64,000 bases of DNA, from positions 224,001-288,000 of the forward strand of contig CBDCVK010000002.1 of the NCBI GenBank assembly GCA_965223005.1, read 5' to 3'. The translations under genes and the position numbers were made by a program. Positions 13,620 through 47,968 of this stretch are shown here, piece after piece (within the stretch, counting starts at the first letter, position 1; every line of letters begins with the position of its first letter). Source of the DNA: Terriglobia bacterium (GTDB taxonomy: Bacteria; Acidobacteriota; Terriglobia; JAJPHL01; JAPKYU01). The notes under the pieces are model-generated. The model ran no database searches and was not told the DNA's origin. It saw only the letters and a list, made by a program, of their open reading frames with translations.

Positions 13620-13809
13620 CGTGCGGTGTGATGGCGCCCGGCGATTGTGACGTACTTTGTGACATAACCCTGCCATCCAAGCCCAACTAACCCCTTGTCA
13701 CTCGGTGTGCGTCAGTGTCACTCGTCGGAGGCACAGAATGGGGGGATGCACCGCTGCGCGTATCACTTGGGCTCACTCCCTCTCACTCCTTACTACGTCG
13801 CTTCCTGAA

Positions 13810-13854
13810 CTCCGGAACCAAAGGCCGCAGGTTCGAATCCTGCCGGGCGTACCA
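13810..13854 (+). repeat. tRNA-Arg(CCG) 3' half (att-site duplication)
   Basis: CTCCGGA anticodon loop, T-arm GCAGG-TTCGAAT-CCTGC, acceptor strand and CCA; no 5' half upstream; identical to 23611-23655. Confidence 0.85.
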
Positions 13855-13955
13855 CTCTTCTTCTCGGGGAATCAACAGGTTGGCGGGAATTGGCGTTAGG
13901 CGAGATTGGGCCGTTTTGGTGCAGGTGTGCAAGAAGTGTGCAAGATGGGACATGG

Positions 13956-14084
13956 CTAGTTAATCCCGGCTACTTCCTTCTGGATCGGAATTACCTGCTG
14001 CTGTTGCTGCTGTTCGGCCTCTAGGTATTCCTCGGCTTTGAGCAGAGCTTCTTGCTGGTCCTTTTCGTCAATGATGTCATACCT
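13956..14084 (-). pseudogene. Probable C-terminal tail of a phage-type tyrosine integrase
   Basis: RYDIIDEKDQQEALLKAEEYLE..*, resembling the catalytic-Tyr tail of island integrases; points toward the tRNA half. Confidence 0.5.
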
Positions 14085-14507
14085 GGTGCCAAGAAGCTAG
14101 GTACGGCTGTCCGCCGCCTGAGGGTTCAAGCGGTGAGGTGCCGCCTGTTCCGAAATGTTCTGATGCGTGTAGTACGGTCTGGGTTCAATGCAACGACGAG
14201 AATCCATGGGACCCAGGGGCAGCCTGCGACTGCGCCAAGCGCCGCTGCATCGATCGCATTAGTGGAGAGATTCGGCACATTGAATGTGCGTGTAGCGGAC
14301 TCGTGATTGGAGGGCGACTGGGAGCGCCGAGGAAGTGGGGAACGACAGGTGCGCATAAAGTCTCTGGACCCGAAGATGTTTCCCAAGAGACGAGCCGCTC
14401 TCGCGAAGGTCGCGCATTGCTGGCGACGGAATCAAGAAAGCGGACTGAACAGCAGCAAAAGAAGAAGTAGCCAGTCAAGGTGCCCGCCATCGTATGGACG
14501 GTTAGGG

Positions 14508-14639
14508 CAGGTGTGCACTTTGGTGTGCAGGAAGTGGGGCAGAAATGCTCCCACTTAAGCGGACAACTGGGAATGCTATCCGCATTGCTTTTCTGCCCCT
14601 TGTGGTACTGATTCGGCTGGAGTAGGTTGCGGAATTCCC
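14508..14639 (+). mobile_element. Integrative element right end (GTGTGCA arm repeats)
   Basis: 132 bp with 5 mismatches to 23479-23610; GTGTGCA direct repeats at 14511 and 14523; abuts a tRNA half. Confidence 0.75.
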
Positions 14640-14684
14640 CTCATAACCCAAAGGTCGTCGGTTCAAATCCGACCCCCGCAACCA
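14640..14684 (+). repeat. tRNA-fMet(CAT) 3' half (att-site duplication)
   Basis: CTCATAACCC..GTCGG-TTCAAAT-CCGAC-CCCCGCAACCA; identical to 23110-23154. Confidence 0.88.
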
Positions 14685-14956
14685 AACTAGATCAGCGGGT
14701 TAGAGCCGCTCCCCCGGAAACAACCTAGGTTCGTTAGGGTGCGAATCCCTGCTTGGCCCCTTTGTTTCGTAAAACTCGGTTGCACTGCAGGCCGACCCAG
14801 AAGGGTGATCCACCGCTGATGCGAATGATCCTCTCCATGGACGACTCCCAGAATGGCGACGAGGACGTTTGCCTGCGACAAACAGGCAAGATCTTCACGG
14901 AAAATTTACTTAGCTCAGAAGCCAAAGTCGGTTAGAATCGGCGCCCATTCTCGACC

Positions 14957-16636
14957 ATGTTATTGGGGTGCGTGACCATGTCCTTCTGCTCGACTCAATC
15001 CCTGCGGCTGGCCTTCTGCATAGTCCTGGCATCGGTGTTCGCGAAGAACCTTCTGGCCGAGCGACCGAAGCCCCAACTGGTGCTTCTGATAGTGGTCGAC
15101 GAACTCCGCGGAGACATGTTGTGGCGATTCCAGGATCGATTCGGTCCCGGAGGGTTGCGCTACTTGATCGAGGAAGGTATCGCATACAAGCAGGCCTACT
15201 ATCGCCACTCGACGACCTTCACCGCGTCTGGCCACGCGACTCTGGCCACCGGCGGCCACGCGGCACTGCATGGATTTCCCGGAAACGATTGGTACGACCC
15301 GAGACTCGGCCGTCGTGTCTACTGTGTGGAAGACGATCGGTACAACGTGATCGACCAAGCCGGAGAATTGCATACTGGAACCTCGCCTCGGAACCTCACC
15401 TCAACTACCTTCGGCGACGAGCTTGTTCTGGCAACCGACGGGCGGGCCCGCGTCTTTTCCGTATCGATTAAAGATCGGGGGGCGATCATTCCCGGAGGTC
15501 ATCTCGGTAAAGCCTTCTGGTACTCGAAAAACACCGGTGGATTCATCACCAGCACCTACTACTTCCATGAGTATCCAGGATGGGTAAAGAGGTGGAATGG
15601 GGCGAAAAAGGCCGACCGCTACCAGAACCAAACCTGGGACCTGTTGCGGGATCGATCCAGCTATCTCTACGCAGCCCGCGACGACCGCTCCAGCGAGCGA
15701 TCCTATAAGCATCTAGGCAGGACTTTTCCTCACCCGCTGGGCAATCCCAATCCCCAAGACTTCTACTCCGCATTACGCTTCACGCCGATGTCCGATGAAT
15801 TGACCCTGGAGTTCGCCAAAGAGATTCTCGCCCAGGAATCACTGGGAAAAGGTGGGGCAACCGATGTCTTGGCCGTGAGCTTGTCGGCAAGTGATTACAT
15901 CGGCCATGCTTTTGGCCCCAACAGCCTTGAGACAGAGGACAATCTGCTGCGTCTCGATCGATACCTGGCGGAATTTTTCGGGTTCGTCGACGGCCATGTC
16001 GGTCTGGACCAGACGCTCATCGTGCTGTCTTCGGATCGTGGCATCGATGCGATCCCGGAATTCAAGGTCGGCCTCGGCATGGCTGCCGGTCGGCACCGTC
16101 CTGACCGCTTCCTCAGGACTATCAACGACGAACTGAAGAAACGGCTGGATACCCAGAAGGACCTGGTGAAGGTCTTCTGGAATCCGTCCCTCTATCTGAA
16201 TCTGGAAGTCGTACAGGATCTGGGTCTTCAGGTTGAAGAGGTGGAACGACTGGTGGCCGCAGAGATCCTGAAGCTTCCCGGGTTCGCGCTTGCCGTGACG
16301 AGGACCGACCTGCTGGCTGGGCACCTCAGTTCCGGTCCGATTCAGCAGAAGGTGCAACTGGCTTTTCACCCCCAGCGATCGGGCAACGTCCTGGTCGTAC
16401 AGAGTCCTTCCTGGTATCTGTATCCGGACGCAGAAAAGTATTCCGCCATGCACGGCTCTCCCTACACCTACGATACCTACGTCCCGATCTTGATCGCTGG
16501 TGCTGGAATCCGACCGCAGGTTGTCCAGCGTCAGGTCGCTCCCCAGGACATCGCTCCGACAATCACGAGTTTGTTGGGAGTGGTGCCGCCGTCGGGTTCA
16601 ACTGGGACACCGCTGGTCGAAGTTCTCGGAAACTGA
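14957..16636 (+). CDS. Alkaline phosphatase family protein (PafA-like)
   Basis: VVDELRGD, Thr-nucleophile motif TASGHAT, SIKDRGA, DYIGHAFGP, MHGSPY.YD.YVP; the DHG ligand motif reads DRG. Confidence 0.85.
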   Translation: MLLGCVTMSFCSTQSLRLAFCIVLASVFAKNLLAERPKPQLVLLIVVDELRGDMLWRFQDRFGPGGLRYLIEEGIAYKQAYYRHSTTFTASGHATLATGGHAALHGFPGNDWYDPRLGRRVYCVEDDRYNVIDQAGELHTGTSPRNLTSTTFGDELVLATDGRARVFSVSIKDRGAIIPGGHLGKAFWYSKNTGGFITSTYYFHEYPGWVKRWNGAKKADRYQNQTWDLLRDRSSYLYAARDDRSSERSYKHLGRTFPHPLGNPNPQDFYSALRFTPMSDELTLEFAKEILAQESLGKGGATDVLAVSLSASDYIGHAFGPNSLETEDNLLRLDRYLAEFFGFVDGHVGLDQTLIVLSSDRGIDAIPEFKVGLGMAAGRHRPDRFLRTINDELKKRLDTQKDLVKVFWNPSLYLNLEVVQDLGLQVEEVERLVAAEILKLPGFALAVTRTDLLAGHLSSGPIQQKVQLAFHPQRSGNVLVVQSPSWYLYPDAEKYSAMHGSPYTYDTYVPILIAGAGIRPQVVQRQVAPQDIAPTITSLLGVVPPSGSTGTPLVEVLGN

Positions 16637-17182
16637 GTCGAGCGGGAACTACGTGGACTAGGAATAATCGCCAATCCCACTGCCGCGTCTAGAAAGAAAC
16701 CAGCTTTAGAAAATCGCGGCGCTCCGATGTCGAATCAGCAACTTGAATGCTGACCCTTCACAAAGGCCGCTTACGCGTACCGTGGGACCGGCTCAACTCG
16801 GCTCCGTGCGCGCGATATTCGTGGGATTTACGAGAGCGCCTCGCCCATCCCCGCGAAAACACCGAACCTGTATGCAAGCAGTTTTCTTGACGCAATCCGC
16901 AATCTGTTCCGAGATGCTGCTTTCGGGGTACACGCGAAGATTGTCGAATGACCCTAATCTCTTGGTCCGACAAAAGGGTTGAGGAGTTGGTTCCGTCTAG
17001 GTGAGTCCGCAGATCCTCGGGTAGGGATCCGAACTGGACTTGGACCGGCGGCGTTCTTGGGTTCGATTTGGGTTCAATAACTATTACCCAGCCTTCCTGA
17101 AGCTTCCTCAACATTGCTATGCGTACCGCAAAATGAATCACTTAGCCAAAAGGGGTTAAACTCATAACCAAAAGGGGTTAAA

Positions 17183-17225
17183 CTCATAACCCAGGTCGTT
17201 GGTTCAAATCCAACCCCCGCAACCA
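17183..17225 (+). repeat. tRNA-fMet 3' half (variant allele)
   Basis: CTCATAACCCAGGTC-GTTGG-TTCAAAT-CCAAC-CCCCGCAACCA; preceded by a 22-bp tandem duplication at 17146-17189. Confidence 0.82.
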
Positions 17226-17285
17226 AAAAATCAAGGGGTTAGGGGACGTTACCCTAGCCCCCTACTTTTTTATCTAACAGCTATC

Positions 17286-17477
17286 TAACAACTCGCCAGG
17301 CACGGGCTCTGAAACAGAGAAGTGAGAGCCTTGACACTAAGAAGTCGGACCTCGCAAGGGTCAAAGGGTCGCGGCACAGTGTTAACAACTCGCCAGGCAC
17401 GGGCTCTGAAACAGAGAAGTGAGAGCCTTGACACTAAGAAGTCGGACCTCGCAAGGGAAGGGTCGCGGCACAGTGTT
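17286..17477 (+). repeat. 97-bp tandem duplication
   Basis: Unit TAACAACTCGCCAGG..CACAGTGT starts at 17286 and 17383; near identical with one short indel. Confidence 0.9.
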
Positions 17478-17549
17478 TATGTAGCTCCGCTCCAAGAAAC
17501 TTTTGGTGAAAAATGCTTCAACTAGAACGCCCGGTCAACCTGACTCCCC

Positions 17550-17634
17550 GACTTGGCTGTATAGTCGGCTATCCGGACAAGTGATCCTCTATGCCCGCCA
17601 GGGTAGTGGTCAGTTTCCGATAAGGGCGTTATAC
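17550..17634 (+). repeat. Paired-site element (type 1), copy 4, truncated after GTTATAC
   Basis: GACTTGGCTGTATA-GTCGGC-TATCCGGACAAGTG plus type-1 loop and GTCAGTTTCCGATAAGGGCGTTATAC. Confidence 0.8.
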
Positions 17635-17729
17635 TCGGAATTCTCAACCCTTCTCCACTCTCATAGTCGGCCGTCACGCGACAAGGTTTCTTGTCTTTCC
17701 TACGCTCCCATCCGGGTTCAACCTTGGGT

Positions 17730-18308
17730 TCAAGAGGCGCGGAGTGGGGCCGGTGGCACAACTTGGTTGATCGTCCCGTTGCCTACGTCGTAGACGAAGC
17801 CGGAGACGACCAGTTGATCTGGCGTTCCGGGGGTGTGGCGGAGTCGTTCGACGTCGTCTTGCACAGACGTGGTAGGGTCGCTGATTGCCATTGCCGATAC
17901 TTCGTCGACACTGAGGCCGAGCCGTTCTGCCACCTGTCCCTGGATAGCCGGGTTGGCGAGACGAGACATTCCGCAATCGGTGTGGTGGATAACGACAAGT
18001 TCCGGCTGCCTAGGGCTGGTTCCCGGCTGGCTGAAGGCGGCGGCCAGAACGCCGAGAATGCCGAGATCTCGTATCACTGCGGGGGTGATCCTGCCGCCTG
18101 CGTTACGCATGACGACCGCGTCGCCGAGTCCGAGCCCGAAAAGGTGTGCAGGATCGACGCGGGCGTCGAGGCAGGTCAAGAGGATCGTTGACATACGGGG
18201 CGAAATCTTGAGGTCTCCTGCCGCGAACTGCTCAGCAAAGCTCCGGTTGCGATCGAGTAGCGTGGTCAGGTCAGCCGTCTCTCCCCCTGTTGTCTGTTCC
18301 TTAGTCAT
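17730..18308 (-). CDS. Beta-class carbonic anhydrase
   Basis: Zn ligand motifs CLDAR and HHTDCG, plus RNAGGR; RBS AGGAGG. Confidence 0.88.
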   Translation of the reverse strand: MTKEQTTGGETADLTTLLDRNRSFAEQFAAGDLKISPRMSTILLTCLDARVDPAHLFGLGLGDAVVMRNAGGRITPAVIRDLGILGVLAAAFSQPGTSPRQPELVVIHHTDCGMSRLANPAIQGQVAERLGLSVDEVSAMAISDPTTSVQDDVERLRHTPGTPDQLVVSGFVYDVGNGTINQVVPPAPLRAS

Positions 18309-18530
18309 ACTGTCTTCCTCCTTTCTCAATGTATTATCCGTGCCCAAGACGACCGGCGGGCCATCGCTTGGTCCGTCGTCGACATAGTCCACCCGGCCCT
18401 CCTCTCGGCAGAAGCCTTGTCATCCATGGCGCCCCCTGGGAAGTTTGAGCCCGGAGGTCTTGCCCTAAGGGGTACAACGCCGGGGAGAGCTGAGAAGTTC
18501 CCGTCCCTTCCTCAAGCGTGATTTTCTGGA

Positions 18531-19097
18531 TCAGGCGGGATCGCGCCCGACTGGAGCTGCCGCTTCATGTTCCGCCCTCCATTCTTTGTTTTGGTAACAA
18601 AATTCAGGGTTTTTCAGTGTGGAATGTCCCTGCGCGCGGTGGTAGGTCTCTAAATCAGGAACGCGGGTCAGCATGACCTTCATTAAATTCTTGAGGGCCC
18701 TCAGTTTATTCACCACAGTTGGCTTTGCGACGGAACTATCCGCAATATAGCGTCGGGCAATCGTTTCAAAACCCTCCGGATCTCGCCCGACGATTTCCTT
18801 CACCACGCTGGTCGGCGCGCTTACTTCCATAGTTCCGTTGAACGCTTCCTCATTGTAATCCGAGACCTGGGAATACGTGTAGATTGGGAGTCCGGCCGCC
18901 TTTACCGCTTTTCGAAACATTTGTTTGGACATTTTCTGAGCCACAACCTTTCTTCCCAGGATCTTCCCGATAATGTCGGCCATTTCCTGCGTCGAGAGGA
19001 TCTTGGGCCCGGTCGGGCTATAGGTTTTTCCTGCGTGTTTTGCTGGGTCCTTAAGGATATGGGCCGCCACCGCGCCCATATCCTCATCGGACGGCAA
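18531..19097 (-). pseudogene. 5'-truncated NmrA-like NAD(P)H-binding protein
   Basis: EDMGAVAAHIL..HAGKTY.PTGP C-terminal half only; the Rossmann N-terminus is absent. Confidence 0.65.
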
Positions 19098-19195
19098 GTT
19101 CCACCGTCGAGGGATAGCCCCGGTCGCCCGTAGTCCCGTCCCCAGAGATGATCATCGCGTGGGACCCTCTCAGCAGCGTGGTCGTGAGGTGAGCT

Positions 19196-21463
<2,268 letters not shown>

Positions 21464-21979
21464 CTAAGACTGCAGTGCCAACGGCGAACGAGTCGGCAAC
21501 CATTTTGTTTACAATCGCTTGTTCTAATCTTCTGACTTCCCGCCCGGTTTTAGGCCGACCGGTTGCTCCGAATAATTCCGACGCTTTCGCCAGCGGTGGC
21601 CTTCCGCAATCCGTCCAAGGGGCTGTGGACCGCTCGACGGCACCCGGTGACAGACTGCCTCGATTAGACCGCCGATCAACCTGCCGGTCAAGGCCGTAGC
21701 ACCTTACCGCGCTTTCCGCACCTAGGGTGCTGGGCAGGCTCCACTTGGTTAACAACAACGCTGGATAGATCCTGACTAACGGGCTAGGGTTGACTGAAGG
21801 CTCTCAACTCGCGGACCGTCGCCGACACCGAAGTTACCGTCCACCCTGCTCGTAAAGATTGCCACCGGTCTGATCCAGAATTCTGACGATACATGAGCTT
21901 ACCGGACGCTTACGATGTTTAACCCTGACATCGCTCCAGTGGCTAGCCAATTGACGAAGGGCGGCGCCGGGATCTGGTG

Positions 21980-22790
21980 TCACTTCTCTTTTCGACGGGC
22001 TGAGGAACTGGCGGCTTGAGCAGCCACAGTAGGCAGAGTGGCCGTGGTAGGTTGGCCACTTACCCTTCCAGAGTTTGTGAAGTCACCAAGCCGGAAGAAG
22101 TAGTTGCCCTTGGTCAAAATAATCAGCCCTTCAGGAGCCTTGCTTCCGGTGGGGAGGAGGTCTACGCAATTTTCGTGCAGATCGCCTAGAACCTGTTCGG
22201 CATCCTCATCCGCCATAACATGCGGCACCCCTATCTCAGTTAGGATTTTGCAGTCTATTGGATAGCCGTGCGCCTTGTACCTGACCATGAAGGCTTGCTT
22301 GATTTTCTCTTTTGCGTCTGGAGTTACTCCATGCCATCCTTCCAGCGCCTGCTCTAGGTACTGCTCGCAAATTTCGATCGCGGCCGCATAGGCTCCGATC
22401 CAAAATGGATCGAGTTTATCGGCCATGGCCATTTTCACCGTTGGATCTTTGGTTGCCTCCACTCGTTGGACCGCCTCTCCAATTGAGTTAGCAGGGAAAA
22501 ACACCCCTTTCCTCTCTGGATGAAGGACCTGTGGATCAACAGGGCCAAGTTGCGCTGAGGTTGTCAATACCATCGTGTCGGCGGCGAGTGTCAGTAGCGT
22601 TGCTGCACTCTTAGCCATAAACGGCACGACTACCCTGAAGGTCCCAAACCTTGCCCGGCAGAGACTAGCGAGTGCCGAAGCGGCATCCGCACTACCGCCG
22701 CGGGAATGAAGTATTAGATCAATCCCATTCCCTTTGGGCAGTTTGCGGATGACCTTTTTGAAAGCGTAGAGCAGGTCCGTGGACAGAAGC
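21980..22790 (-). pseudogene. SDH-family Clp-fold serine protease, N-terminus disrupted
   Basis: The frame extends upstream of the ORF call through IDLILHSRGGSADAA..VPFMAKSAATLLTLAAD..LGPVDPQ; an in-frame stop lies upstream with no good start. Confidence 0.7.
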
Positions 22791-23109
22791 CTGAAAGGTA
22801 GACTTGTCCATTTAGATCACCAGCCACGCGGCGAGCCTAGTAGAAGGCTTCGTAGGCGCAGTACTGCGTGTTGTCTTCGGGATTTGCGGACGACTGCCAG
22901 CAGCGCTTTAAACTCACGATACTGGTCAACCGCCTTCTTGAGTTCGAGATATTGGCGCCTAGGTGCGGCGCGCTGGGAAACTTTGGTTGGGATGGGGGAA
23001 AGGAGCGGGGGAGTTCTTGGGTTCGATAAGCATTCCCGAGCCTTCCTGAAACTTCCTCAACATTGCTATGCGTACCGCAAAATGAACAACTTAGCCCAAA
23101 GAAGTTAAA

Positions 23110-23154
23110 CTCATAACCCAAAGGTCGTCGGTTCAAATCCGACCCCCGCAACCA
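23110..23154 (+). repeat. tRNA-fMet(CAT) 3' half
   Basis: Identical to 14640-14684; preceded by an ~70-bp end shared with 17090-17160. Confidence 0.88.
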
Positions 23155-23168
23155 ACCTTTCGATTTTA

Positions 23169-23441
23169 TTCTGCACCGGGCTGGGCGCGACGAATCCGCC
23201 GGTCACCTCAGGCGAGCCAGGGCCGGGGACCGAACCACTGGCGCGGGTGGTGGTGCCGGTGGAAGCGCAGGTGGGCGGCCAGCCGGCGACGGTGCACTTC
23301 GCCGGGCTGGCACCGGGCTTTGTGGGCCTCTACCAAGTCAATGTAGAAATCCCGGCAGATGTGGCGCCGGGCTCCGAGGTTCCGTTGGTGTTCCTCCAAA
23401 ACGCTGTCCCTAGCAACACCGTCACCATCGCCGTCGAGTAG
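23169..23441 (+). pseudogene. TIGR03437-type C-terminal domain fragment
   Basis: FCTGLGATNPPV..FAGLAPGFVGLYQVNV..SNTVTIAVE*; no 5' part. Confidence 0.75.
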
Positions 23442-23478
23442 CCCGTTTCGCCTCGTTTAGGTCTCTGAATCCCACCGC

Positions 23479-23610
23479 CAGGTGTGCACTTTGGTGTGCA
23501 GGAAGTGGGGCAGAAATGCTCCCACTTGAGCGGACAACCGGGAAGGCTATCCGCTTTGCTTTTCTGCCCCTTGTGGTACTGAGTCGGCTGGAGTAGGTTG
23601 CGGAATTCCC
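23479..23610 (+). mobile_element. Integrative element right end (GTGTGCA arm repeats)
   Basis: Near-identical to 14508-14639. Confidence 0.75.
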
Positions 23611-23655
23611 CTCCGGAACCAAAGGCCGCAGGTTCGAATCCTGCCGGGCGTACCA
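23611..23655 (+). repeat. tRNA-Arg(CCG) 3' half
   Basis: Identical to 13810-13854; followed by IHF-like AATCAGTTGCTTA and TCTAACA repeats. Confidence 0.85.
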
Positions 23656-23754
23656 CTAAAATCAGTTGCTTATAGAGATTTCGCCTAGGTCCTTTTGCCT
23701 TCCATCTAACACCCGTCTAACAAACGGGCTTTCGTCGGATTCTACGCTAGGCCG

Positions 23755-24600: not shown

Positions 24601-24665
24601 AGGGCGGAGGAACGGGGTTGGTTCCTCAGGAGTCGGTTAGCATTTGCCTATGCTGCCACGCAGCC

Positions 24666-24716
24666 CACTTGGATGTATAACGCGCTTATCGGAAACTGAC
24701 CTACTACCCTGGCGGG
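24666..24716 (-). repeat. Site B plus partial type-1 loop, copy 5
   Basis: CACTTGGATGTATA-ACGCGC-TTATCGGAAACTGA..CTACCCTGGCGGG. Confidence 0.82.
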
Positions 24717-47455: not shown

Positions 47456-47873
47456 AGTACGGAGGCCCACGGAATGCTACCCAGGAGAGGCCATGGTGAT
47501 CTGAGCTTGTGCTGAACTCAGGGACCGGGCGATCGCCAACTTGGCAGTTGCCACTATAGGGAGCGTGTTCTCGGTCACCAACAACCTGCGCGTGGAGCGC
47601 CGCAACGCAGGACCATGCTTAGCCTCCCGGCCTGAAAAGAGATGGCTGCCTAAAGGCACTGCTCGATGGTGACCCATCTCCGTCCTGGCGCCGCAGAAAC
47701 TGGGCTGCGCGCGCCAGGACTTTTTCTCTTGGCCCCCGCACGATCTCGCACCTCGGCAAGGCTTGCAAGGAACTGCCCGCCGTAACGGCGTGTGAGGGGA
47801 CGCTTATCCAGACACAGGAAAATCCCGTAGTCGGTGCGGAAATGATCATACCCCCGCTCGCTCACCGGTGCGC

Positions 47874-47968
47874 CACTTGGATGCATAACGCCCTTATCGG
47901 AAACTGACCCACTACCCTGGCGGGCGTAGAGGGTCACTTGTCCGGATAGCCGACTATACATCCAAGTG
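47874..47968 (-). repeat. Paired-site element (type 1, 95 bp), copy 9
   Basis: Reverse complement of copy 1 with few mismatches; both flanks match those of copy 2. Confidence 0.85.

Follow-up and report, generated by a model that had tools for sequence, protein, structure and literature searches.

How does one bacterial locus come to hold the 3' halves of two different transfer RNA (tRNA) genes, all pointing the same way, in a single array? The question is raised by a 64 kb stretch of a Terriglobia bacterium genome of the Acidobacteriota (the window, G000:C2:224001-288000, with window positions written as w), in which five such halves, h1 to h5, occur within 10 kb. A sequence-only reading of the window had proposed that the halves alternate between two identities, that the array lacks an intact gene at its start, and that the integrase-less units between the halves act as cassettes mobilised in trans. 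Comparison with the rest of the genome and with its relatives shows that the five fragments are true scars of mobile DNA, of attachment site (att) type and left by crossover in the anticodon loop, and that the locus is a historical graveyard of integrated elements, not a new cassette or recombination system. We consider it probable that the locus arose by tandem accretion and decay of integrative elements at a tRNA-Arg(CCG) gene, in the manner of cis-mobilisable elements (CIMEs), and that a block of initiator tRNA (tRNA-fMet) scars became nested inside one of the remnants.

Five tRNA halves from two genes

The genome's own 42 tRNA genes served as the reference for the halves. The two Arg halves, h1 and h5, match positions 33-77 of the tRNA-Arg(CCG) gene at 45 of 45 nucleotides, and h2 and h4 match positions 33-77 of the initiator tRNA gene (C10:814138-814214) with 95.6% identity over 45 nt, differing from this host gene by a compensatory change in the T-stem (GTCGG/CCGAC instead of GTTGG/CCAAC). 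The third initiator half, h3, has the T-stem of the host but has lost 2 nt, and 23 nt are duplicated locally immediately upstream, at the crossover edge. Position 33 is a C and opens the 7-nt anticodon loop, CCA terminates each of the five fragments, all five are on the + strand, and their starts are separated by 830, 2543, 5927 and 501 bp. The earlier description of five 45-nt halves, each starting at the anticodon loop and ending in CCA, is therefore borne out by the tRNA genes themselves. ARAGORN found no intact tRNA in the window and Rfam found none at its gathering thresholds, and at permissive thresholds Rfam did not pick up the halves in w1-30000, a silence to be expected since the fragments are halves. 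A regular expression for the T-arm and CCA found no further halves over C2:200-300 kb.

Across the genome there are 19 partial-tRNA loci, 14 of which begin at tRNA positions 29-34 and reach the 3' end (a Glu fragment counted among these ends within 4 nt of it), and 12 matches to the integrase family PF00589, most of which adjoin tRNA genes. Together these indicate that integrases with crossover in the anticodon loop are abundant in this lineage. Two of the 19 loci are 5' fragments, from Thr and Val-CAC; no 5' half of Arg(CCG) or of the initiator tRNA is among them.

The tRNA-Arg(CCG) gene anchors the array

The statement that no intact tRNA or integrase accompanies the halves is correct within the window and fails just outside it. 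An intact tRNA-Arg(CCG) gene (C2:210611-210687, + strand) lies 13.4 kb upstream of the window, co-oriented with the halves, and anchors an array that had been thought to lack a starting gene; its last 45 nt recur as identical repeats at C2:237810 and C2:247611. A 390-aa open-reading frame (ORF) encoding a tyrosine integrase (C2:210693-211865, minus strand; PF00589 2.8e-24, phrog_1 7.3e-55) ends 6 nt past the gene and is followed by an excisionase-like ORF (phrog_66 1.4e-6) and a PrimPol plus AAA_25 (primase-helicase) gene. These three genes form the left end, outside the window, of a 27,122-bp element that we call E1, which extends from C2:210687 to h1. Matching TTGTGAC-N5-TTGTGAC pairs are found on both of its arms, 45 nt past the gene and 165 nt ahead of h1, and support the view of E1 as a single coherent element. 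With the gene, the adjacent integrase and the co-oriented identical halves, the Arg halves constitute a canonical tandem array, laid out as gene, 27-kb E1, h1, 9.8 kb and h5. The locus thus has the structural features of a tandem tRNA island, namely an intact gene with co-oriented repeats, an adjacent integrase, and att-bearing units without integration or replication genes. The Arg-bounded units could be moved in cis by the E1 integrase.

We propose that anticodon-loop tyrosine integrases would have inserted elements serially into this gene. The newest would be E1, which lies by the gene and still has its integrase, excisionase-like and primase-helicase genes, and its insertion would have displaced h1 outward together with an older, gutted element of a second type (type A, below), which h5 would close.

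Three families of arms flank the halves

In a lambda-type attP the core is flanked by arms that carry arm-type integrase sites and integration host factor (IHF) sites. The junctions in the window resemble this arrangement, in that short direct repeats stand in pairs on either arm, at set distances from the core, and predicted WATCAR-N4-TTR boxes lie just past the core, but the arms of the fMet-type elements carry different motifs, GGGTTCGAT and TCTAACA. The IHF-like box WATCARNNNNTTR has six exact matches in the 64 kb against 1.47 expected, a count reached in 0 of 100 shuffles, and three of the six sit 4-16 nt past a half (13870, 17229 and 23660); by inspection of the sequence, a fourth IHF-like box with one mismatch lies at 14690. 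Paired repeats start at 13645/13657 (TTGTGAC), at 13925/13936, 14511/14523 and 23482/23494 (GTGTGCA), at 17059/17070 (GGGTTC) and at 17273/17284 and 23705/23716 (TCTAACA), the chance expectation for the GTGTGCA and TCTAACA pairs being 0.00. All the boxes and pairs listed by the sequence-only reading are present, and it was right to call the junctions attP-like (P arm, core, P' arm) and the halves att-type scars; the third GTGTGCA pair, at 23482/23494, had been overlooked and is the key to the structure. Across the genome, the window included, these pairs keep to tRNA junctions: GTGTGCA pairs in three of three cases (+71 of h1, -129 of h2 and h5), TCTAACA pairs in five of five (48-50 nt past an fMet gene or half, or past h5), GGGTTC pairs in three of three (102-124 nt ahead of fMet halves) and the TTGTGAC-type pattern in four of seven (+45 of the Arg gene, or -163 to -165 of h1 and of Pro and Val halves).

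These repeats distinguish three arm families in the array, types A, B and C. Type A (GTGTGCA) has its P' arm (P'_A) past h1 and a 132-bp P arm (P_A) that is present twice, ahead of h2 and of h5; the two copies share 96.2% identity over 132 bp, with the first 49 bp exact and five differing positions thereafter. Type B is fMet-specific. Its P arm (P_B) of ~155 bp, with the GGGTTCGAT pair, lies ahead of h3 and h4 and also ahead of fMet halves at C10:807591, C2:54659 and C9:80860, and its P' arm (P'_B) of ~100 bp lies past h3, C2:54703, C9:80904 and the tRNA-fMet gene on C10, to whose downstream sequence w17226-17329 is homologous. The P'_B arms contain an IHF-like box, a hairpin and a TCTAACA pair at +48 to +50, and the hairpin past h3 (17235-17261) is the strongest terminator-like site of the region. 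Type C is represented by the E1 arm ahead of h1 (P_C), which shares 89% identity over 249 bp with the arm of a tRNA-Pro(CGG) half and 80% with that of a Val(GAC) half. The arm past h5, an Arg half, has the same layout as the fMet P'_B arms, and h4 has no arm downstream and abuts a 5'-truncated gene for a repeated C-terminal domain (delta-Y), which is not a P' arm since its frame is open right up to h4. The minus strand of w13855-14042 also holds the last ~30 codons of a lost gene.

A single arm type thus occurs with several tRNA cores: P_C is found with Arg, Pro and Val, and P_A with Arg and fMet. Where loci have an arm in common, as with P_C and with another arm shared by Glu and Lys, the copies are 80-96% identical. 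Relatives show the same elements in other arrangements. G001 has an E1-type P' arm past tRNA-Arg (96% over 234 bp, including the 77-bp tRNA gene) and an orphan Arg half on another contig (C4:2115134), and G003, of the same genus, has P'_A directly past its intact tRNA-Arg(CCG) gene (95%), with a Y-end and the start of P_A 3.7 kb farther along. Among the 11 genomes searched within the order, P_A occurred in just two, G000 and G002, and its usual partner is Arg: in G002 it is joined to an Arg half followed by an E1-type P' arm and an integrase 3' end (92% over 212 bp). Both kinds of element, E1-type and A-type, belong to Arg(CCG) and differ in order across the genus. Gene order around tRNA-Arg varies within the genus (the upstream neighbour of this gene in G000 lies 300 kb away from tRNA-Arg in G003) and an empty site could not be defined. 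When 30 relatives were searched at the DNA level, the array as a whole had no conserved counterpart; the matches were to the catalase-peroxidase gene and to short pieces of arm or core.

A block of fMet scars nested between two P_A arms

The halves run Arg, fMet, fMet, fMet, Arg, which is an order of nesting; the two identities do not alternate, as had been thought, and the three fMet scars form one block between two Arg scars. Both switches of identity, from h1 to h2 and from h4 to h5, have a P_A copy just upstream of the switched half, and the block w14508-23478 is bracketed by these direct copies. A single exchange between them would yield a pure Arg array and an 8,971-bp closed fMet-type block. 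The Arg array would then read h1, P'_A-X-P_A and h5, an 830-bp gutted A-type element with matching arms around a spacer X, and the block, units U1, U2 and U3 bounded by fMet cores, would be what excision from a tandem array at tRNA-fMet produces. This resolution into two canonical objects argues for Campbell-type entry in P_A. From the observed sequences, arm families, gene content, anchor gene and integrase we infer the position of the crossover, the order of events and this mode of entry. The 8,971-bp block, three decayed units with h2, h3 and h4, would sit inside the A-type remnant, having most likely arrived whole through a homologous (Campbell-type) exchange in P_A, and it could be lost by the same recombination. 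What came in would have been a composite circle, released by excision from an array at tRNA-fMet and probably formed in a different host; entry by site-specific recombination seems less likely.

The T-stem of h2 and h4, unlike the host's, points to a foreign origin, judging from the sequence. G017, a genome of the same class, has a tRNA-fMet gene matched by h4 at 46 of 46 nucleotides and an fMet half matched by h2 at 97.96% over 49 nt (89.6% over 67 nt at the G017 tRNA-fMet gene). A P_A-like end joined to an fMet half occurs in two contigs of other Acidobacteriota metagenome-assembled genomes, which gave the nearest junction matches, and these joins make an A-like element specific for fMet plausible.

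Contigs from public sequencing runs bear on the proposed exchange. Six of the 24 public runs listed hold 0.82-0.86 of the sampled words (the other 18, with less than one tenth, were excluded) and contigs of four of the six were compared. One contig of 656 nt, from run X19, runs from w14014-14507 straight into w23479-23640; 8971 bp are skipped, and 49 letters are ambiguous. The skip could reflect a true deletion variant or an artefact of the graph, and the contig is weak evidence for an exchange in P_A; it sits at the P_A repeats, and no joints at Arg or fMet att cores are among the contigs listed.

Several points weigh against a Campbell-type entry of the block. The model needs a pre-existing join between P_A and an fMet half, and a prior deletion that left h4 abutting the truncated gene. 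The link between the Y-end and P_A at the Arg locus of G003 is a further difficulty, and fits equally well a resident of Y-P_A/h5 with an incomer of X-P_A/h2...h4. Solo fMet junctions near C2:54.6 kb and C9:80.8 kb are not explained by one event, and no excision was observed. The X19 contig is a k=31 Logan contig, in which a graph artefact through the 49-bp repeat is possible, and the block contigs of X19 have a similar depth (11.9-19.1 against 15.7). In the other three of the four runs the contigs end inside the repeat, and among the contigs listed for the four runs none holds the reciprocal (circle) joint and none bridges the X-to-h2 join of the assembly.

The same contig could be read as a sign of an assembly error, in which Arg and fMet loci, or a separate 8,971-bp circle, were joined via the shared P_A end. 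A mis-assembly through shared element ends was the outcome that the sequence-only reading had itself named as refuting it, such a shared end does exist, and one public-run contig takes an alternative path through the 49-bp exact repeat. The window assembly has, however, many internal repeats of 1.4-2.7 kb with 99.9-100% identity that are resolved in the contigs, which implies reads far longer than 49 bp and makes a mis-join through 49 bp unlikely; moreover, the P_A copies differ at five positions past the exact run, and in all four runs the block and its surroundings have similar depth. We therefore regard an assembly error as extremely improbable. The run contigs break at every repeat and neither confirm nor refute the assembled joins, and four loose-end strings from them, absent from this genome, probably come from other organisms or strains.

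Part of a tRNA-fMet array could also have moved into the Arg array by chromosomal rearrangement, without a circular intermediate, either by a series of inversions involving homologous islands at different tRNA loci or by homology-facilitated illegitimate recombination when DNA came in from outside. The sharing of island arms between loci at 80-96% identity would suit such a route, as would the orphan halves distant from their genes (Glu, Lys and Val here, and that in G001), the loss of synteny around tRNA-Arg within the genus, and the join of h4 to the truncated gene, which looks illegitimate. To put an Arg half back beyond the fMet block would take at least two events, and the exact bracketing of the block by direct P_A copies would then be a coincidence or a by-product. 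We hold this route to be rather unlikely and prefer entry of the block by homologous recombination in P_A.

The fMet elements are remnants and the units are not working cassettes

Arms and cores of the fMet type occur at five sites in the genome, with the integrase and excisionase genes (int-xis) absent, and none of the 12 PF00589 matches adjoins tRNA-fMet or sits in the array. The full layout of a type-B fMet element, with both ends and int-xis by the tRNA, was seen in G027 only, a genome of the same class, where an intact element of 10.8 kb lies between tRNA-fMet and a P_B/half junction and carries an integrase (3.3e-25), an HTH_17 excisionase, a Rep protein and a restriction-modification gene; the closest relative of this integrase in the present genome is 28% identical. 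The P_B arm itself was matched in five other genomes (G017, G041, G106, G135 and G027). A class-wide search with the C9 fMet junction gave matches in 177 of 201 genomes, nearly always to the 45-nt tRNA part alone, and the two or three matches seen in 49 of the 201 (including G096 and G105) may be second genes instead of scars and were not used. The fMet copies in the window are remnants of a family of fMet-targeting elements, not working members of it, and the fMet scars are inert here, without a cognate integrase.

The units are integrase-less, as had been claimed: none of 12 ORFs between h1 and h5 matches a recombinase or replication family in Pfam, none of the six tested against PHROGs matches any family, and tblastn with three integrases found no integrase remnants inside the array. 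U1 measures 2.5 kb, U2 5.9 kb and U3, a truncated gene with P_A, 0.5 kb. U2 contains an intact catalase-peroxidase gene (19196-21379, minus strand), fragments of carbonic-anhydrase, NmrA and SDH-protease genes, a 97-bp tandem duplication and an 85-bp dispersed repeat. Genes inside the units run on both strands, three of the five family-bearing ORFs inside the fMet block are partial matches, and small ORFs without a family are also present between h1 and h5. The spacer X has no match elsewhere in the genome and its ORF no family in Pfam or PHROGs.

These contents bear on the proposal that the locus is a functional stack of attP-like junctions, whose islets are reshuffled as cassettes by integrases acting in trans. 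Its attractions are the preserved paired repeats at fixed distances with their IHF-like boxes, the identity of the three Arg cores over 45 nt with an apparently intact int-xis module in cis, the recurrence in three islands of attP-like fMet modules of ~300 bp that share no interior, and the precedent of cis-mobilisable integrase-less elements in the part of the CIME literature consulted (PMC5704250). Set against these, the fMet cores have no PF00589 integrase (0 of 12, by tRNA-fMet or in the array) and nothing nearer than a 28% relative of the G027 enzyme; the core of h3 has lost 2 nt and that of the C9 copy is changed at its first base, h4 abuts a truncated gene and not an arm, three of the five family-bearing ORFs of the block are partial, the units carry genes on both strands, and 30 relatives lack a conserved array. 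A working cassette system is accordingly improbable, on account of the missing fMet integrase, the damaged h3 core, the gene fragments and the lack of conservation.

Solo attP-like fMet junctions (P_B/core/P'_B) lie at C9:80756-80983 and C2:54527-54807 of this genome, one inside the tRNA-Pro(CGG) island and the other 4.4 kb past tRNA-Leu(TAA) with its integrase. They have only the ~300-bp module in common and share no interior with the C10 fMet island; the C9 copy resembles the attP expected from an excised C10-type element, with the first base of its core changed. Such modules, in islands at Arg, Pro and Leu tRNAs, might be maintained landing pads or surrogate att sites, an idea we rate as very improbable. 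If it were true, the pads would divert elements that target the initiator tRNA from the single essential tRNA-fMet gene, or would allow units without an integrase to travel as passengers from one island to another with a different tRNA specificity, and would form a cross-specificity exchange network among the tRNA islands of the lineage. The solo junctions, the orphan halves and the join of h4 to the truncated gene suggest frequent recombination among islands that share arms.

Just outside the C10 fMet island, a 517-aa ORF (C10:806037-807590) encodes a large serine recombinase (Resolvase, Recombinase and Zn_ribbon_recom families), and its last 44 nt overlap the fMet attR half.

Comparison with known systems

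Integrons hold, next to intI and attI, single-ORF, co-oriented, promoterless cassettes, each of which ends in an imperfect inverted repeat, the attC. The locus is like an integron array in that co-oriented recombination sites divide variable units beside an integrase. It differs in that its sites are tRNA halves with long arms and not attC hairpins, its units are multi-gene, on both strands and partly fragmentary, and there are two site identities with an integrase for one only. An integron was rejected, the units being 0.5-5.9 kb, on both strands and holding fragments, and the sites tRNA halves with arms of 100-160 bp. Split tRNA genes consist of separate 5' half genes with complementary leaders and have no full-length gene; a split tRNA of the Nanoarchaeum type was rejected, since full-length Arg(CCG) and initiator genes exist and no 5' half of either was found.

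The nearest parallels are with elements that accrete at the 3' ends of genes. In the excerpted account of the CIMEs related to ICESt1 of Streptococcus thermophilus (PMC5704250), integrase-less units bounded by att sites are described as mobilised in trans or in cis. As here, such units retain att sites and form a tandem, at the 3' end of the target gene, with an element that bears an integrase; the more recent element is the one closest to the intact gene, and composite excision is possible. The present locus differs from what that account describes in its target, a tRNA anticodon loop in an uncultured Acidobacteriota-type genome, in the nested block with scars of a second tRNA held by one remnant, and in that neither conjugation genes nor excision were seen in it. 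The tycheposon islands of Prochlorococcus (bioRxiv 10.1101/2020.12.28.424599), as far as the excerpts of that preprint go, likewise grow by serial integration at one tRNA, which pushes older elements inward, and have partial tRNAs and degenerate remnants scattered in them; their module of tyrosine recombinase, excisionase, primase/helicase and metabolic cargo is like E1, by module content only. Each of those islands has its own tRNA and its own integrase, and scars of a second tRNA are not described in those excerpts. A literature search, covering listings and abstracts together with the excerpts of these two papers, found no description of nested scars of a second tRNA.

The locus is a dissected example of the growth and decay of a tRNA-anchored island in a poorly sampled, uncultured, soil-type lineage, and one in which scars of one tRNA have been carried into an island at another. 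Programs that detect islands by matching tRNA genes to their fragments would set the wrong boundaries here, or would report the fMet fragments as islands in their own right.

Features of the locus and other observations

Table 1. Elements, tRNA halves, arms and units of the array, in window positions.
Feature	Position	Strand	Identity
E1, right-hand two thirds, cargo genes	w1-13533	+	
P arm of E1 (type C), TTGTGAC pair 13645-13663	w13534-13809	+	
h1, tRNA-Arg(CCG) 3' half, attR-type scar of E1	w13810-13854	+	45/45 to gene
P' arm of A-type element, GTGTGCA pair 13925-13942	w13855-14042	+	95% to sequence past G003 tRNA-Arg(CCG)
X, unique spacer of A-type remnant	w14043-14507	.	
P_A arm copy 1, GTGTGCA pair 14511-14529, joined to fMet core	w14508-14639	+	
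h2, initiator tRNA 3' half, foreign type (T-stem GTCGG/CCGAC)	w14640-14684	+	
Unit U1, diverged P' arm and phosphodiesterase/nucleotide pyrophosphatase gene (14957-16636)	w14685-17027	+	
P_B arm, GGGTTC pair 17059-17075, 23-nt duplication at crossover edge	w17028-17182	+	
h3, initiator tRNA 3' half, host type, 2-nt deletion	w17183-17225	+	
P'_B arm, IHF-like box 17229, terminator-like hairpin 17235-17261, TCTAACA pair 17273-17290	w17226-17329	+	
Unit U2 cargo	w17330-22999	.	
P_B arm, second copy in the window	w23000-23109	+	
h4, initiator tRNA 3' half, foreign type	w23110-23154	+	
delta-Y, 5'-truncated gene for repeated C-terminal domain	w23155-23441	+	
P_A arm copy 2, GTGTGCA pair 23482-23500, joined to Arg core	w23479-23610	+	
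h5, tRNA-Arg(CCG) 3' half	w23611-23655	+	45/45 to gene
P' arm of further remnant, IHF-like box 23660, TCTAACA pair 23705-23722	w23656-23722	+	

The cargo of E1 inside the window comprises genes for an aldo-keto reductase, a PSCyt/PSD1 protein, a DUF1501 protein, an aldolase, a PQQ protein and a PPDK-like protein. The gene pair of PSCyt/PSD1 (DUF1549/DUF1553) and DUF1501 is carried both by E1 (w1904-6857) and by the 6.5-kb C10 fMet island (C10:809464-813930). A 719-bp stretch of E1 cargo (w8771-9489) is 100% identical to a distant locus (G000:C10:1094908-1095626), which suggests, from the identity of the sequences, a recent duplication or gene conversion.

Two repeats were seen in U2. The dispersed repeat of ~85 bp, resembling a miniature inverted-repeat transposable element, occurs at w17551-17634, 216-343, 24632-24716 and 47873-47967 with 83-96% identity and at no fewer than eight (at least 8) further loci on other contigs, often inside or beside islands. 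The 97-bp tandem duplication (97% identical, w17286-17477) lies directly past the P'_B arm of h3; the contigs of all four public runs have a single copy of it, together with a 4-nt insertion behind 17507, and the single-copy state may be a strain difference or a collapse at k=31.

Orphan 3' halves distant from their own genes lie elsewhere in this genome at C2:110231 (Glu-TTC), C10:929958 (Lys-CTT) and C9:19592 (a Val-GAC fragment), and the Glu and Lys halves have in common an upstream arm of 188 bp with 87% identity.

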